From: a virus
Taxonomy: Duplodnaviria; Heunggongvirae; Uroviricota; Caudoviricetes
Direction: 5' to 3' (one strand)
IMG/VR virus record: IMGVR_UViG_2663762849_000017
Length of the DNA stretch: 11,721 nt
Shown: positions 1 to 7,936 of the stretch, piece after piece
How the letters are laid out: each line of letters opens with the position of its first letter
Position numbering within the stretch: position 1 is the stretch's first letter
Notes under the pieces: model-generated
Database searches by the model: none
Told to the model about the DNA's origin: nothing
Seen by the model: the letters and a program-made list of their open reading frames with translations, nothing else
Translations under genes and position numbers: made by a program

Positions 1-1
1 A

Positions 2-142
2 GCCCGTACAGAGATCACTCATTACCGTATGCATGGCGCGGGTAGCGCCAACGATGGCGTCTACCGGACACGCCTGAATACATTTAGTGCAGCCAATACA
101 GTTATTTTCATCAATAACCGCCACCATCCGCGCTGGCGTTAG
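2..142 (+). CDS. Partial ORF (3' end only; 5' end lies outside the window); position is consistent with the end of a late antiterminator (Q-like) gene, but the product is not recognised
   Basis: Open frame from the window edge to TAG at 140-142, immediately upstream of a leader/terminator and a pinholin gene, which matches the lambdoid order Q-pR'-tR'-S-R. The sequence itself was not recognised; the assignment is positional only. Confidence 0.25.
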
Positions 143-179
143 CTCTTGCGCTTCGCCATCCAGCGGCTGCGGCTCGACT

Positions 180-260
180 CATTGGTTATTTGTTGAAGTT
201 TTCTTATGTATTTGTGGTGGTGTTTTGAACACTCGGTGGCATTCTCACAAATATCATTTA
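180..260 (+). promoter_or_regulatory. Candidate late promoter (pR'-like) / leader region upstream of the lysis cassette
   Basis: AT-rich stretch with imperfect sigma70-like hexamers (e.g. TTGAAC at 225-230) about 100 bp upstream of an intrinsic terminator and about 250 bp upstream of the holin start, as in the lambdoid pR'/qut/tR' layout. The hexamers are weak and the exact promoter is not resolved. Confidence 0.25.
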
Positions 261-322
261 GTAGTTTACGTACGTAAAAAATTGGTTATGCTGTTAAGAG
301 TGGTTACTTCGTCACACAGCTT

Positions 323-350
323 AAACCCGCCGTCGAGCGGGTTTTTCCAT
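323..350 (+). terminator. Rho-independent terminator (tR'-like) in the late leader
   Basis: Perfect 8-bp inverted repeat AAACCCGC / GCGGGTTT (323-330 and 337-344) around a 6-nt loop, followed by a T-rich tract TTTTCCATTTTTT. Confidence 0.65.
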
Positions 351-484
351 TTTTTGAGTCTCGATATTAGCTGATAACCCAATACCTGAGTTATTCACTG
401 ACTCCGAATCTGTTACGTTTCTGCCTTTATTGCGATACGTAGTATCCCCTTAATTTACACCCGCTTTGTCTGCGAGGTGGGGTT

Positions 485-700
485 ATGAAATCCATGGATA
501 AGTTAACAACGGGTGTCGCCTATGGCACCTCAGCAGGTAGTGCCGGGTACTGGTTTTTACAGTTGCTCGATAAAGTCACGCCCTCACAGTGGGCGGCAAT
601 AGGTGTGCTGGGTAGTCTGGTATTTGGCTTGCTGACGTATCTGACAAACCTTTATTTCAAGATTAAAGAAGATAAGCGTAAGGCTGCGAGAGGTGAATAA
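485..700 (+). CDS. S: Class II holin (pinholin), phage 21 S21-like, 71 aa
   Basis: ATG at 485 preceded by a GAGGTGGGG Shine-Dalgarno. The N-terminus MKSMDK carries the dual-start motif (Met1/Met4) typical of S21 holin/antiholin. Two hydrophobic helices are followed by a charged C-terminus [13 protein letters not shown]. The protein closely resembles the phage 21 pinholin as I recall it. Its stop overlaps the next ATG (TAATG). Confidence 0.85.
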
Positions 701-3700
701 TGTCGCCATCATTACGCAAGGCTATTGCTGCTATTGGTGGTGGGGCTGTTGCCATAGCGTCTGTGCTCATCACTGGTCCGAGTGGTGACGATGGCCTGGA
801 AGGTGTCAGCTACATACCATACAAAGATATTGTTGGTGTATGGACTGTATGTCACGGGCATACAGGAAAAGACATCATGCTCGGTAAAACGTATAAAGGC
901 AGCAGTAAGGGGCATACCCCGCGCGAAGCGAAGGACAACCTGAAATCCACGCAGTTACTGAGTGTGATCGATGCCATCAGCGAAGGGCCGATTGAAGGTC
1001 CGGTGGATGGGTTAAAAAGCGTGCTACTGAACAGTACGCCGGTGCTGGACACTGAGGGGAATACCAATATCTCCGGTGTCACGGTGGTGTTCCGGGCAGG
1101 TGAGCAGGAGCAGACTCCGCCGGAGGGGTTTGAATCCTCCGGCTCCGAGACGGTGCTGGGTACGGAAGTGAAATACGACACGCCGATCACCCGCACCATC
1201 ACGTCGGCAAACATCGACCGTCTGCGTTTTACCTTCGGTGTGCAGGCACTGGTGGAAACCACTTCAAAGGGTGACCGGAATCCGTCGGAAGTTCGCCTGC
1301 TGGTTCAGATACAGCGTAACGGTGGCTGGGTGACGGAAAAAGACATCACCATTAAGGGCAAAACCACCTCGCAGTATCTGGCCTCGGTGGTGGTGGATAA
1401 CCTGCCTCCGCGCCCGTTCAATATCCGGATGCGCAGGATGACACCGGACAGCACCACAGACCAGCTGCAGAACAAAACGCTCTGGTCGTCATACACCGAA
1501 ATCATCGATATGAAACAGTGCTACCCGAACACGGCACTGGTCGGTGTGCAGGAGGACTCGGAGCAGTTCGGCAGTCAGCAGGTGAGTCGTAATTATCATC
1601 TGCGCGGGCGCATTCTGCAGGTGCCGTCGAACTATAACCCGCAGACGCGACAATACAGCGGTATCTGGGACGGAACGTTAAAACCGGCATACAGCAACAA
1701 CATGGCCTGGTGTCTGTGGGATATGCTGACCCATCCGCGCTACGGCATGGGGAAACGTCTTGGTGCGGCGGATGTGGACAAATGGGCGCTGTATGTCATC
1801 GGCCAGAATTGCGACCAGTCGGTGCCGGATGGTTTTGGTGGCACGGAGCCGCGCATCACCTGTAATGCCTGGCTGACCACACAGCGTAAGGCGTGGGATG
1901 TTCTCAGTGATTTCTGCTCGGCGATGCGCTGTATGCCGGTATGGAACGGGCAGACGCTGACGTTCGTGCAGGACCGGCCGTCGGATAAGGTGTGGACCTA
2001 TAACCGCAGTAATGTGGTGATGCCGGATGATGGCGCGCCGTTCCGCTACAGTTTCAGCGCCCTGAAGGACCGCCATAATGCCGTTGAGGTGAACTGGATT
2101 GACCCGGATAACGGCTGGGAGACGGCGACAGAGCTTGTGGAGGACACGCAGGCCATTGCCCGTTACGGTCGTAACGTCACGAAGATGGATGCCTTTGGCT
2201 GTACCAGTCGGGGGCAGGCACACCGAGCCGGGCTGTGGCTGATTAAAACGGAACTGCTGGAAACGCAGACCGTGGATTTCAGCGTGGGCGCAGAAGGGCT
2301 TCGCCATGTGCCGGGCGATGTTATTGAAATCTGCGATGATGACTATGCGGGTATCAGCATCGGCGGGCGCGTGCTGGCGGTGAACAGCCAGACCCGGACG
2401 CTGACGCTCGACCGTGAAATCACTCTGCCATCCTCCGGTACCACGCTGATAAGCCTGGTTGACGGAAGCGGCAATCCGGTCAGCGTGGAGGTCCAGTCCG
2501 TCACCGACGGCGTGAAGGTAAAAGTGAGCCGGGTTCCTGACGGCGTTGCCGGATACAGCGTGTGGGGGCTGAAGTTGCCGACGTTGCGCCAGCGCCTGTT
2601 CCGCTGCGTGAGTATCCGTGAGAACGATGACGGCACGTATGCCATCACTGCCGTGCAGCATGTACCGGAAAAAGAGGCCATCGTGGATAACGGGGCGCAC
2701 TTTGACGGCGACCAGAGCGGCACGGTGAATGGTGTCACGCCGCCAGCGGTGCAGCACCTGACTGCCGAAGTCACCGCAGACAGCGGGGAATATCAGGTGC
2801 TGGCGCGCTGGGACACGCCGAAGGTGGTGAAGGGGGTGAGCTTTATGCTTCGCCTGACCGTGGCAGCGGATGACGGCAGTGAGCGGCTGGTCAGCACGGC
2901 CCGGACGACGGAAACCACATACCGCTTCACGCAACTGGCGCTGGGGCGGTACACGCTGACAGTCCGGGCGGTAAATGCGTGGGGGCAGCAGGGCGATCCG
3001 GCGTCGGTATCGTTCCGGATTGCCGCACCGGCAGCACCGTCGAGGATTGATCTGACGCCGGGCTATTTTCAGATAACCGCCACGCCGCATCTTGCCGTTT
3101 ATGACCCGACGGTACAGTTTGAATTCTGGTTCTCGGAAAAGCGGATTACCGATATCAGGCAGGTTGAAACCACAGCCCGCTATCTTGGCACGGCGCTGTA
3201 CTGGATAGCTGCCAGTATCAATATTAAGCCGGGCCATGATTATTATTTTTATATCCGCAGTGTGAATACTGTTGGCAAATCGGCATTCGTGGAGGCTGTC
3301 GGTCAGGCGAGCGATGATGCTTCCGGCTATCTGGATTTTTTCAAAGGCCAGATAACTGAATCCCATCTCGGCAAGGAGCTGCTGGAAAAAGTCGAGCTGA
3401 CGGAGGATAACGCCAGCAAACTGGAGGAGTTTTCGAAAGAGTGGAAAGACGCCAACGATAAATGGAATGCCATGTGGGGCGTCAAAATTGAGCAGACCGA
3501 AGACGGCAGGCATTATGTCGCGGGTATTGGCCTCAGCATGGAGGATACGGAGGAAGGCAAACTGAGCCAGTTCCTGGTTGCCGCTAACCGTATCGCGTTT
3601 ATTGACCCGGCAAACGGGAATGAAACGCCGATGTTTGTGGCGCAGGGCAACCAGATATTCATGAACGAAGTGTTCCTGAAGTATCTGACGGCTCCCACCA

Positions 3701-4287
3701 TTACCAGCGGCGGCAATCCGCCGGTATTTTCCCTGACACCGGACGGGCGGTTGACGGCGAAAAATGCCGATATCAGCGGTAACGTGAATGCGAACTCAGG
3801 GACGCTCAATAATGTCACGATTAACCAGAACTGTCGGATTCTGGGAAAACTGTCTGCCAACCAGATTGAAGGTGATATTGTCAAAACGGTGGGAAAAGCC
3901 TTTCCGAGAAATGGCAGTTATGCCAGCGGTACAATAACGGTCACTGTGTACGATGACCAGGCTTTTGACCGTCAGATAGTAATCCCACCCGTTCTGTTTC
4001 GCGGTGGTAAGCATGAAAACTTCAACAGCAACAACCAACAGTCATACTGGTATTCAACCTGTAAGCTGCAGGTACTGAAGAACGGACAGGAAATCTTTCA
4101 GCAACCCGCGACGGATGTCAGCAGGGTATTTTCATCCGTCATTGATATGCCAGCGGGACACGGCCATGTCACCCTGACTTTCAATGTTTCTTCATATGGT
4201 GCAAATAACTGGACGCCAACGACCAGTATCAGCGACCTTCTTGTTGTCGTGATGAAGAAATCAACAGCCGGTATCAGTATCAGTTGA
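700..4287 (+). CDS. J: Chimeric ORF: N-terminal ~65 aa of a SAR endolysin (R21-like lysozyme) fused in frame to a lambda J-like tail-tip host-specificity protein (residues ~66-1195)
   Basis: Residues 1-65 ([65 protein letters not shown]) match the signal-anchor-release domain and start of the catalytic domain of phage 21 endolysin. From [22 protein letters not shown] onward the protein is collinear with lambda gpJ (recalled from memory). There is no ATG at the position of the native J start, so translation depends on the R start. The ORF is uninterrupted over 3.6 kb. The last ~140 aa differ from the lambda J C-terminus and are lower in GC. Confidence 0.85.
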
Positions 4288-4305: not shown

Positions 4306-4331
4306 GGGCGCCAGAAATGGCGCCTTTTTTA
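4306..4331 (+). terminator. Rho-independent terminator between J and stf
   Basis: GGCGCC (4307-4312), loop AGAAAT, GGCGCC (4319-4324), followed by TTTTTT (4325-4330). Confidence 0.6.
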
Positions 4332-4345
4332 TTTGTGGAGTGAAT

Positions 4346-6406
4346 ATGGCAGTACAGATTTCAGGCGTGCTGAAAGACGGTGCAGGAAAACCAATACAGA
4401 ACTGTACTATTCAGCTCAAAGCAAAGCGTAACAGCACCACGGTACTGGTGAACACGGTGGCCTCTGAAAATCCGGATGAAGCCGGGCGTTACAGCATGGA
4501 TGTTGAGTATGGCCAGTACAGCGTCACCCTGCTGGTTGAAGGTTTTCCGCCTTCACATGCCGGGACCATTACCGTCTATGAAGGTTCCAGACCAGGTACG
4601 CTGAATGATTTTCTCGGTGCCATGACGGAAGATGATGTCATGCCGGAGGCATTGCGTCGTTTTGAGGTAATGGTGGAGGATGTGGCACGCAACGCTGAAG
4701 CCGCCTCTCAGAGCGCAGCGGCAGCAAAGAAATCAGAAACAGCAGCGGCATCGTCCAGGAACGCGGCGAAAACATCAGAGACGAATGCAGGTAACAGCGC
4801 GAAAGCGGCAGCTTCTTCAAAAACAGCCGCACAAAACGCAGCAACAGCGGCAGAACGTTCAGAGACAAATGCCCGTGCGTCAGAAGAAGCCTCCGCAGAC
4901 AGTGAAGAGGCTTCCCGCCGTAATGCAGAGTCAGCCGCTGAAAATGCCGGAGTCGCCACCACAAAAGCGCGGGAGGCTGCAGCAGACGCAACAAAGGCCG
5001 GGCAGAAAAAGGATGAGGCTCTGTCGGCAGCGACACGAGCTGAAAAGGCGGCAGACCGCGCAGAAGCCGCAGCGGAAGTGACTGCAGAGCCCTATGCGAA
5101 TATAGTGCCGCCGCTGCCTGATGTGTGGATACCGTTTAACGATTCACTGGATATGATTGCGGGTTTTTCTCCGGGCTATAAAAAAATAGCTATTGGTGAC
5201 GATGTGGTTCAGGTCGCCAGTGATAAACAGGTTAATTTCAGTCGCGCATCAACGGCAACATATATCAACAAATCTGGCGAACTGAAAACGGCGGAAATTA
5301 ATGAGCCGCGATTTGAGTGTGATGGCCTGCTTATTGAGGGACAAAGAACGAACTACATGCTCAATTCGGAAAGTCCAGCCAGCTGGGGGAAGTCATCAAA
5401 CATGGATGTGCCCGAAACCGGGACGGATAGTTTTGGTTTTACTTATGGAAAGTTTGTCTGCAACGATTCTCTGGTTGGGCAAACTTCGGCTATTAATATG
5501 GCATCAATTGCTGCAACAAAGTCAGTTGATGTCTCAGGCGATAACAAGTACGTGACAACCTCATGCCGTTTTAAAACAGAACGACAGGTAAGGTTACGTA
5601 TACGGTTTGATAAGTATGATGGTAGTGCAACAACTTTTCTTGGCGATGCGTACATTGATACGCAAACGCTTGAAATTAATATGACAGGTGGTGCTGCCGG
5701 CAGAATTACGGCACGAGTCAGGAAGGATAAGACCACGGGCTGGATTTTTGCAGAGGCAACGATTCAGGCAATTGATGGAGAGTTAAAAATAGGCTCTCAG
5801 ATACAGTATTCTCCTGAGCAGGGTGGGGCAACAGTATCTGGTGACTATATTTATCTTGCCACCCCACAAGTAGAGAATGGACCATGTGTATCATCATTTA
5901 TTATTTCAGGAGGCAGCGCAACGACAAGAGCCAGTGATTTGGTTAGTATCCCCACCAGAAATAATCTTTATAAGTTACCATTTACTTTTTTACTTGAGAT
6001 TCATAAAAACTGGGATATTGCACCAAACGCCGCACCCCGCGTGTGGGATATAGCAGCAGCCAATACCGGGCAATCAGCAATTGCAGCAATCAACAGAGGT
6101 AGTGGTAAGTTATATATGAGTCTGTCAAACCCTTCAGGCTCGTATGTTAATAGCGCAGCGACAGATGTATTTGCAGAGAAAACCACATTTGGATGTATTG
6201 CAAAAGCTGATGGTCACTTTCATGTGGTGACAAATGGTAAAGCGGTTAATGAAGTTTATTGTGAATATAATGGCGTGACCGCTGATAAAAATATCCGATT
6301 TGGAGGGCAGACGAATACTGGAGAACGACATCTGTTTGGCCATATTCGCAATTTCCGCATATGGCATAAAGAATTAAATGACAGGCAATTAAAAGAGGTC
6401 GTATGA
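4346..6406 (+). CDS. stf: Side tail fibre protein (lambda Stf-like N-terminus, Ala/Ser-rich shaft, divergent lectin-like C-terminal domain)
   Basis: The N-terminus MAVQISGVLKDGAGKPIQNCTIQLKAKRNSTTV...GRYSMDVEYGQYSVTLLVEGFPPSHAGTITVYE matches the lambda Stf N-terminal domain as I recall it. It is followed by an Ala/Ser/Glu-rich repetitive shaft. The C-terminal ~430 aa are encoded by lower-GC DNA and end in NFRIWHKELNDRQLKEV, a motif typical of concanavalin-A-like/LamG jelly-roll domains. I place the start at ATG 4346 with GGAG 6 nt upstream; the ORF track starts at GTG 4340. Confidence 0.8.
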   Translation: MAVQISGVLKDGAGKPIQNCTIQLKAKRNSTTVLVNTVASENPDEAGRYSMDVEYGQYSVTLLVEGFPPSHAGTITVYEGSRPGTLNDFLGAMTEDDVMPEALRRFEVMVEDVARNAEAASQSAAAAKKSETAAASSRNAAKTSETNAGNSAKAAASSKTAAQNAATAAERSETNARASEEASADSEEASRRNAESAAENAGVATTKAREAAADATKAGQKKDEALSAATRAEKAADRAEAAAEVTAEPYANIVPPLPDVWIPFNDSLDMIAGFSPGYKKIAIGDDVVQVASDKQVNFSRASTATYINKSGELKTAEINEPRFECDGLLIEGQRTNYMLNSESPASWGKSSNMDVPETGTDSFGFTYGKFVCNDSLVGQTSAINMASIAATKSVDVSGDNKYVTTSCRFKTERQVRLRIRFDKYDGSATTFLGDAYIDTQTLEINMTGGAAGRITARVRKDKTTGWIFAEATIQAIDGELKIGSQIQYSPEQGGATVSGDYIYLATPQVENGPCVSSFIISGGSATTRASDLVSIPTRNNLYKLPFTFLLEIHKNWDIAPNAAPRVWDIAAANTGQSAIAAINRGSGKLYMSLSNPSGSYVNSAATDVFAEKTTFGCIAKADGHFHVVTNGKAVNEVYCEYNGVTADKNIRFGGQTNTGERHLFGHIRNFRIWHKELNDRQLKEVV
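4680..5090 (+). repeat. Ala/Ser/Glu-rich low-complexity repeat region inside stf (fibre shaft)
   Basis: Reiterated motifs such as AAxxSETNA / AASS / AAENA in the translation. The GC-rich repetitive codons produce spurious ORFs in other frames and on the opposite strand. Confidence 0.6.
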
Positions 6407-7134: not shown

Positions 7135-7936
7135 TGCTGGTAACGGCAAACGTCATGATGAACAAAACCGCGAATAAGACGACAATCGTCGGAGCTGGTG
7201 CGCTGTCGATAAAAAAGGACAACCAGACACCAGTCATTGACACTATTACCGATATGCCAGTCGCCAGTAGGAGCGCAATATGAAAGCGTTGTGTCAGGAG
7301 TACCGCAATGGCGCCAGGCGCAATGAGCAGAGAAATGGAGAGAATGATACCTACCGCTTTCAGCGTCGCCACAATGGTCAGAGAGACCATGCACAGCAGC
7401 CCATAATGCAGCCATCTCGTATGCAAACCGCTTACCTGCGCCTGTTGATAATCAAAGCTGAACAGCAAAAAATCCCGCCATTTTACGCTAATAACAAGTG
7501 TAACCAGCCCGGCAATAATCATCGTCTGGATTATATCGCCGATGGTTATCCCGAGCATGTCGCCGAAAAGAATATGGTCAAGATGTACGTCTGGTTTGAC
7601 TGCAATATACAAGATCAGACCTGCGGCAAACATGCCAGAAAAAACAATCCCCATCACTGTATCTTGCTTGATTCGGCTGTTGTCTTTCAGGTATCCCGTC
7701 GCCACCGCGCAGAATACTCCGGCGACGAATGCCCCTGTAGCCAAAGGTAACCCCAGAATCCAGGCAAGCACGATGCCAGGAAAAACCGCATGACTCATCG
7801 CGTCACCCATCAGTGCCCAACCTTTCAGGACCAGAAAGACTGACAGCAGCGCACAGGGTATGGAAACTACCAGTGAAATCAGCAGTGCGTGACTCATAAA
7901 GGTGAACTGCAGTGGCTCCAGTAATAATGCCATCAT
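7079..7936 (-). CDS. sitD: Mn/Fe ABC transporter permease SitD
   Basis: 285-aa polytopic membrane protein, last gene of a four-gene operon (binding protein, ATPase, two permeases). Its start overlaps the sitC stop by 4 bp. Confidence 0.85.
   Translation of the reverse strand: MMALLLEPLQFTFMSHALLISLVVSIPCALLSVFLVLKGWALMGDAMSHAVFPGIVLAWILGLPLATGAFVAGVFCAVATGYLKDNSRIKQDTVMGIVFSGMFAAGLILYIAVKPDVHLDHILFGDMLGITIGDIIQTMIIAGLVTLVISVKWRDFLLFSFDYQQAQVSGLHTRWLHYGLLCMVSLTIVATLKAVGIILSISLLIAPGAIAVLLTQRFHIALLLATGISVIVSMTGVWLSFFIDSAPAPTIVVLFAVLFIMTFAVTSINARKKGNSHTQDLLSPN

Follow-up and report, generated by a model that had tools for sequence, protein, structure and literature searches.

A probable lambdoid late-gene control cassette of the Q21/Q933W family, cut off from its Q gene in an Escherichia coli prophage remnant

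Introduction

Proteins of Pfam family PF06530 were named the Q21/Q933W family by Yin et al. (10.1101/651190), who describe the corresponding cassette as a Q gene followed by the promoter pR′, a sigma-dependent pause element, a terminator and the late genes. The cassette of phage 21 (Q21, pR′21, QBE, SDPE and terminator; structures 6P18/6P19/6JNX) is one example, and in the solved structures the element that Q21 binds comprises two 8-bp subsites in direct repeat. The Stx phages are another: Sy et al. mapped the primary start of pR′ by dRNA-seq in both Stx phages of Sakai, and placed by Term-seq the 3′ end of the terminated transcript 258 nt downstream of that start (PMC7547250). A third system is DLP12, the prophage of E. 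coli K-12, for whose lysis operon PMC7918800 cites three regulators, namely Q (Toba 2013), RpoE (Rueggeberg 2015) and Hha; the Q-dependence of the DLP12 lysis genes is thus published, as cited there.

Here we describe a control region upstream of the holin gene essD in an 11,721-nt stretch of DNA, the whole of which we call the window. A preliminary description of this DNA had proposed a late promoter, a short leader, an intrinsic terminator and then the holin, laid out as in the lambdoid pR′–tR′ arrangement; homology to the Stx phages and the Q-linked relatives of the locus bear out that layout. We consider it probable, at roughly 80%, that positions 265–355 are the late-gene control cassette (pR′, Q-loading region and tR′) of a DLP12/PA-2-type lambdoid phage with a Q of the Q21/Q933W family, orphaned in this DNA.

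Results

A decayed lambdoid prophage joined to a fragment of rsxB

The window is E. coli DNA that carries a decayed lambdoid prophage remnant. From position 179 onwards it is 100% identical to the live lambdoid phages Lambda_4C10, 4A7, 1W and 3W, and also to the prophage remnant of B2-type E. coli such as SCU-387. The features that surround the control region are these:

1–178, minus strand: piece from the interior of host rsxB, spanning approximately codons 91–149, not prophage; 100% identical to rsxB in many E. coli genomes.
178/179, no strand: junction between rsxB and prophage, without microhomology, placed by three-way alignment.
179–264, plus strand: distal remainder of the porin (nmpC/lc/ompC)–essD spacer of the DLP12/PA-2 type; 100% identical to Lambda_4C10 and SCU-387.
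356–484, plus strand: remainder of the essD 5′ leader, with a Shine-Dalgarno sequence, GAGGTGGGG, recognized at 474–482.
485–700, plus strand: essD, which encodes a 71-aa (pin)holin of the phage 21 type and has in-frame starts at both Met1 and Met4 (PF04971, E 2e-35).
700–4287, plus strand: endolysin′::J fusion ORF, assigned by domain matches; 65 aa of a SAR-type endolysin N-terminus, then J domains.
4306–4325, plus strand: second strong terminator-like hairpin, just 3′ of the fusion ORF, from the terminator scan; 8 pairs, 6 of them G–C, with the tail TTTTTTATTTG.

The first late gene under the control unit is essD, which bears that name in annotated relatives too; its Pfam match confirms the holin start at 485 that had been proposed earlier. 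The R′::J fusion of the preliminary description is also real: the first 65 aa of the ORF are 98% identical to the N-terminus of a phage endolysin and continue in frame into an almost complete tail-tip protein J, with the endolysin truncated after those 65 aa and all genes between R and J deleted. The same fusion, annotated as gpJ and adjacent to sitABCD, is found in 79 complete E. coli genomes. Downstream of the fusion ORF come the tail-fibre gene (stf) and two small ORFs; beyond the remnant lie sitDCBA on the minus strand and then an icd-related fragment. At the right end (10594–11721), a fragment of the isocitrate-dehydrogenase family and ymgL-like sequence adjoin sitA, which locates the remnant at the icd (e14-type) attachment region; another strong plus-strand terminator-like hairpin occurs near that end, at 11632–11654.

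At the left end, prophage DNA begins at 179, which is 120 bp upstream of the transcription start that we propose below, and the junction side has neither the 5′ part of rsxB nor rsxA nor the promoter of these genes. Among 5,426 complete E. coli genomes there is not one with the two sides contiguous, the best placement of positions 1–330 covering 55% of the query, and the exact junction 33-mer has no match in the viral, GTDB-genome and metagenome contig collections. Its absence from these genomes and contig collections leaves two explanations for the junction: a rearrangement peculiar to the source strain, such as an inversion end, or a chimeric assembly.

The preliminary description had made the activity of the downstream genes depend on whether a Q-like gene upstream is intact. 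In the window there is no such gene: 1–178 is rsxB, and tblastn detects no Q homologue within the whole window. The expected upstream Q does exist in the relatives. SCU-387, Lambda_4C10 and K-12 all carry quuD 1.67–2.9 kb upstream of the cassette; in the closest relatives quuD is intact and lies 1.67 kb upstream, with an opposite-strand porin gene in between, where the window has rsxB instead. SCU-387, the one that we inspected among the 79 genomes with essD–R′::J, has the upstream order ybcN-ninE-ybcO-rusA-ylcG-quuD-porin. In the window, the late cassette is orphaned from its Q gene by the rsxB junction; what relatives have upstream, namely the Q gene, the porin gene and essDp (a published sigma-E promoter), is missing altogether. 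A separate feature of the spacer between porin and essD is a plus-strand sigma-70-like promoter, ATGGCA-17 nt-TATAAT, which agrees with the consensus at 10 of 12 positions and is present in intact relatives (7927–7955 of locus L002); this site is lost here, and would be at window positions 105–133 had the prophage continued.

A late promoter homologous to pR′ of the Stx phages

The proposed control elements are as follows:

265–270, plus strand: putative −35 hexamer, TTTACG; the same hexamer in the same place as in the annotated pR′ of VT2-Sakai and SC370.
267–278, plus strand: perfect 12-bp dyad TTACGTACGTAA, overlapping the −35 and followed by an A tract; candidate Q-binding element, present in most cassettes.
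287–292, plus strand: putative −10 hexamer, TATGCT, separated from the −35 by a 16-nt spacer and aligned with TATCAT of the Stx pR′.
299, plus strand: predicted transcription start, A299 (±1), from alignment with the dRNA-seq-mapped Stx2a/Stx1 pR′ start.
299–322, plus strand: conserved initially transcribed region AGTGGTTACTTCGTCACACAGCTT, shared by DLP12-type, Stx and SfII phages, whose flanks differ.
323–355, plus strand: predicted tR′-type intrinsic terminator, comprising a stem-loop at 323–344 (+25 to +46) and a T tract; from scan, folding and comparison.

A consensus promoter scan with a 9-of-12 cut-off flagged nothing in 180–320. The promoter at 265–292 escaped it because only 8 of 12 positions match the consensus, and was placed by homology instead, from a sensitive BLAST search of 179–484 against phage records. 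Apart from near-identical phages of the DLP12/PA-2 type, positions 262–346 match the pR′/first-hairpin segment that directly follows gene Q in more than 280 records of Stx and related phages (BLAST E 6e-10 to 3e-8), where the matched segment is annotated as promoter and terminator (promoter/qut/first terminator). The annotated pR′ of VT2-Sakai and SC370 reads TTTACG-16 nt-TATCAT and is followed by the hairpin stem CCCGC/GCGGG; the alignment brings the −35, spacer, −10 and hairpin stems of the window into register with it. The ‘putative late promoter’ of the preliminary description can hence be assigned to 265–292. Across 56 unique cassettes among the matches listed (see below), the −10 occupies a fixed position, with A2 present in 56/56 and T6 in 55/56.

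For the start site, we relied on the Stx Term-seq 3′ end, which is located in the T tract belonging to the second of the annotated terminators (990–995 of locus L004); subtracting 258 nt puts the Stx start at 738–740 of that locus, in alignment with window positions 299–301. We infer from this homology a sigma-70 pR′ promoter at 265–292 that would start transcription near A299.

The likeness to 933W and VT2-Sakai therefore covers an identical −35, a −10 in the same position, a corresponding start site, a homologous initial transcribed sequence and an identical first hairpin stem; it extends only from about −37 to +48, and ends after the first hairpin. The differences lie to either side. In the Stx phages, Q ends 17 nt before the initial-transcript motif, whereas the DLP12-type relatives have the opposite-strand porin gene between the two; the Stx phages keep Q, and this window is without it; and the Stx phages have a second terminator at +258 that defines the transcript StxS, whereas here there is none before essD and the holin comes directly next.

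DLP12 of K-12 suggests a different source for transcription of this segment. Its nmpC–essD region is collinear with, and nearly identical to, the window from 179 to the essD start, including the hexamers and the hairpin; in contrast to the window, it keeps quuD, an IS5-disrupted nmpC and essDp upstream, it is without 17 nt of the leader, and its endolysin gene is intact. The regulatory-region amplicon of PMC7918800 spans −121 to +650, with primers given in its supplement; K-12 has an exact match for the forward primer and an approximate one for the reverse, and the amplicon length of 771 bp fits. These primer coordinates put the essDp +1 at K-12 576,874, preceded by GAACTA-16 nt-TCACT (4843–4875 of locus L007, K-12 576,842–576,874), so that essDp would be sigma-E-like and adjoin the start codon of nmpC. 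The pR′ start proposed here corresponds to K-12 577,229 (cassette at 5196–5230 of L007), which is 355 nt downstream of the essDp start and 169 nt before the essD ATG. It is conceivable from this geometry, and from the citation of Rueggeberg 2015 for this −121 to +650 region, that the segment is simply the distal part of a long 5′ UTR that issues from the upstream sigma-E promoter essDp, with the hairpin acting as an attenuator and no promoter at 265–292. We think this unlikely: the hexamers at 265–292 are homologous to, and in register with, an experimentally mapped Stx promoter, and the cassette accompanies Q (where Q is found) even without anything that resembles essDp upstream. Nor are the two promoters mutually exclusive; they could coexist. 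The essDp site itself would be about 235 nt past the 178/179 junction, where the window has rsxB sequence; were the segment a 5′ UTR of essDp, the unit in this window would have no promoter at all. A sigma-E-like promoter inside 179–300 was considered separately and rejected, its best elements (TGAACAC at 226–232 and TCACA at 245–249) being only 12 nt apart. The accessible DLP12 literature makes no mention, that we could find, of a pR′-type cassette before K-12 essD, and our searches for work on essD that involves Term-seq or quuD/ybcQ gave nothing useful.

A dyad over the −35 that changes with the linked Q allele

We return to pR′ as the preferred reading of 265–292, and to the Q proteins with which such promoters are linked. 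The Q of the closest relatives is QuuD, a protein of 127 aa in PF06530 (E 9e-54) that is 80% identical to the cognate Q of VT2-Sakai and matches the solved Q21 structures (6P18/6JNX) as a distant relative (E 3e-8). In Q family, layout and holin type, on which the two were compared, the phage 21 cassette resembles this one: each passes from a promoter through a promoter-proximal loading site, putative here, to a terminator, with a PF04971 holin (phage 21 S) downstream.

For a broader comparison, IMG/VR was scanned for the initial-transcript motif TAAGAGTGGTTACNTNG, which is present at a minimum of 120 loci (at least 120); a few chance matches inside coding sequence were removed, and 56 distinct related cassettes were used. 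Among the matches listed, wherever Q is found on the contig or reference locus, the cassette follows a PF06530-type Q that is encoded on its own strand, at a distance of either 17–92 nt or, where there is an insert, 0.6–2.9 kb. Most of the cassette contigs among these matches have the 0.6–2.9 kb insert between Q and pR′, as do loci L001 (947–2616) and L002 (6447–8116). The insert is the opposite-strand porin gene (nmpC/lc/ompC) in DLP12/PA-2 types and comprises other genes in SfII-type phages; an insert in this place amounts to cargo upstream of the late promoter, unlike stx, which is downstream.

The dyad, at −33 to −22, varies between these cassettes and does so together with the linked Q allele (29 distinct promoter variants among the matches listed). 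Its variants across loci L004–L128, again among the matches listed, are TTACGTACGTAA, TTACGATCGTAA, TGTTATAACA, GCGTACGC, GCGGTCCGC, TGGAATTCCA and TTCGTTACGAA, and they relate to Q as follows:

TTTACG(TA/AT)CGTAAAAA: linked Q at least 79% identical to QuuD.
TGTTATAACA: linked Q 62% identical to QuuD.
GCGTACGC or GCGGTCCGC: linked Q 44–51% identical to QuuD.
TGGAATTCCA and TTCGTTACGAA, two further types: linked Q 38–48% identical to QuuD.

Such a pattern is expected of an allele-specific Q-binding element, for which the dyad at 267–278 is a candidate; the assignment is uncertain because the Q21 site is a direct repeat and the element here is a dyad. Mosaic breakpoints within the cassette were also seen. 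One locus (L014) combines a different Q allele and dyad with an identical transcribed region and essD leader, and in another (L099) the promoter and hairpin are identical and the sequence beyond the T tract is unrelated.

The initially transcribed region

Folding predicts a small hairpin at 300–315, formed by the dyad GTGG-N8-(T/C)CAC. Within the initial region, 299–322, nothing stands out as a −10-like pause hexamer: the best is TACTTC at 305–310, a poor one, where the Stx phages have TACATT. We presume that 299–322, conserved across DLP12-type, Stx and SfII phages, is the segment for sigma-dependent pausing and Q loading. The near-invariance of the first 17 transcribed bases across viral contigs was imposed, in part at least, by the search pattern, and does not count as evidence.

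The same dyad has been given a quite different role. The 1986 record of phage PA-2 (GenBank J02580) annotates the equivalent of 299–319 as a CRP binding site, whence GTGG-N8-TCAC at 300–315 might be a site through which CRP regulates the divergent porin gene, the hairpin being incidental. We find this scarcely credible, given that GTG (300–302) and CAC (313–315) are 13 nt apart, as against 11 nt in the consensus TGTGA-N6-TCACA; that the segment is conserved in phages without a porin gene (Stx phages and SfII); and that the porin gene is absent from the window.

When 19 diverse cassettes were aligned with MAFFT, RNAalifold recovered the small 5′ hairpin and not the terminator, a result of the misalignment of differently placed hairpins. 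RNAalifold was therefore replaced by hairpin detection in each sequence individually, with a shuffle control, and it is on this analysis that the following section draws.

A terminator whose structure is kept while its sequence changes

The hairpin at 323–344 has an 8-bp stem (AAACCCGC/GCGGGTTT) with five G–C pairs and a 6-nt loop, and is followed by the tail TTCCATTTTTT, which runs to 355; its folding energy is −11.5 to −12 kcal/mol, and it lies 140 nt upstream of the essD pinholin start at 485. From position 1 to the holin ATG, the scan gave no other terminator-like site on the plus strand, the leader (356–484) included, and the intact relative SCU-387 has this hairpin and no second such site in the stretch from quuD to essD. 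A terminator had been noted in the preliminary description, at 323–350 between late promoter and holin, and this proved correct. The generic terminator scan reports 20 sites in the window against 11.4 ± 3.2 in shuffled sequences, which is a mild enrichment only, so that the case for terminator function rests on comparison.

That comparison is informative. Among the matches listed, a hairpin with a U tract that ends at +41 to +61 is found in 55 of the 56 distinct homologous transcribed regions, and the hairpin reaches a ΔG of −8 kcal/mol or lower in 42/56, versus 23/280 shuffles. These 56 regions contain 28 different hairpin sequences, and some lineages have wholly different stems (CCCUGCC/GGCGGGG, CCUCGC/GCGGGG and UCCUACC/GGUGGGG). 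A structure that is kept while its sequence changes is good evidence that a terminator at this position is functional, as judged from comparative sequence. Transcription from A299 would yield a terminated RNA of about 48 nt.

How completely such a hairpin stops polymerase is a matter to which the Stx data speak. In Stx lysogens, the homologous hairpin lies within the 258-nt StxS transcript (PMC7547250), which indicates that it is passed by at least part of the polymerases even without Q; very short terminated products may have escaped the Stx dRNA-seq/Term-seq libraries. By its sequence, the hairpin of the window looks competent, which is less than the ‘strong’ terminator of the preliminary description. 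A naturally leakier variant may occur in the PA-2 lineage (L003, L096 and about 14 or more further viral loci, at least), in which a G-to-T change at the equivalent of 339 gives the 3′ stem arm AGCTGG and weakens the hairpin from −11.5 to −5.3 kcal/mol.

That the hairpin serves as terminator for a minus-strand gene was rejected, as no minus-strand gene runs into it and its tail on that strand has only three T. Rfam, searched at a permissive threshold, yielded just one match, Trp_leader at 20.2 bits (gathering score 41; E 0.26), which we regard as a chance similarity of a terminator-containing leader.

One further explanation takes the terminated RNA to be the product that matters. The orphaned pR′–tR′ unit could be a stand-alone, constitutive gene for a small RNA of about 48 nt that acts on host transcripts, a DLP12-type counterpart of StxS, laid out as a 5′ hairpin, the single-stranded segment ACAGCUUAA and a terminator with its U tail, and comparable with StxS or with the 6S-type pR′ transcripts of lambda in lysogens. 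In lysogens, the Stx pR′ does indeed fire constitutively and yields, on termination, a functional small RNA that binds Hfq (PMC7547250); the unit, moreover, is intact here despite the loss of Q. Nevertheless, we consider this explanation decidedly unlikely. The functional 3′ 74 nt of StxS and its terminator are absent, nothing in the window matches Stx +50 to +258, and Rfam offers no match beyond the chance-level one just mentioned. As to the intactness of the unit, the remnant is about 100% identical to live phage, so that an intact unit need not reflect selection.

Discussion

Our preferred reading remains that of a late-gene control cassette, and its probable operation can be put together from the elements above. 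Host sigma-70 RNA polymerase would start constitutively near A299 and transcribe the conserved 24-nt initial region; without Q, it would mostly stop at the hairpin and U tract, at about +46 to +50, and release the RNA of about 48 nt. A cognate Q, of QuuD/Q933W specificity, would bind the promoter DNA, most likely at the dyad TTACGTACGTAA over the −35, and load onto polymerase that has paused in the initial region, which would make that polymerase resistant to terminators. The late genes downstream of the cassette are the PF04971 holin (485–700), the endolysin′::J fusion and stf; the Q-modified polymerase would continue through essD and the fusion, past the terminator-like hairpin at 4306–4325, and into stf, that hairpin being one that would halt polymerase unmodified by Q ahead of stf. 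With the Q gene cut away, expression downstream would depend on leakage through the terminator, unless a Q with matching specificity acts in trans.

The kind of element described here is ordinary and already known; known phages share its sequence exactly, and DLP12 in K-12 shares it almost exactly. Our additions are the exact coordinates of promoter, start and terminator, the link to QuuD/Q933W specificity, and the orphaning of the cassette by an unusual rsxB junction, and they have little significance beyond annotation. Within that scope, homology to a mapped promoter fixes the position of the late promoter, its start and its terminator before essD for DLP12/PA-2-type prophages. For DLP12 itself, this places a canonical Q-type cassette 355 nt downstream of essDp, a promoter that the accessible literature treats as responsive to both Q and RpoE. 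For the remnant studied here, the pinholin, the endolysin′::J fusion and stf have lost the activator Q once encoded in cis, and would be expected to stay silent without a Q of QuuD/Q933W specificity from another prophage.
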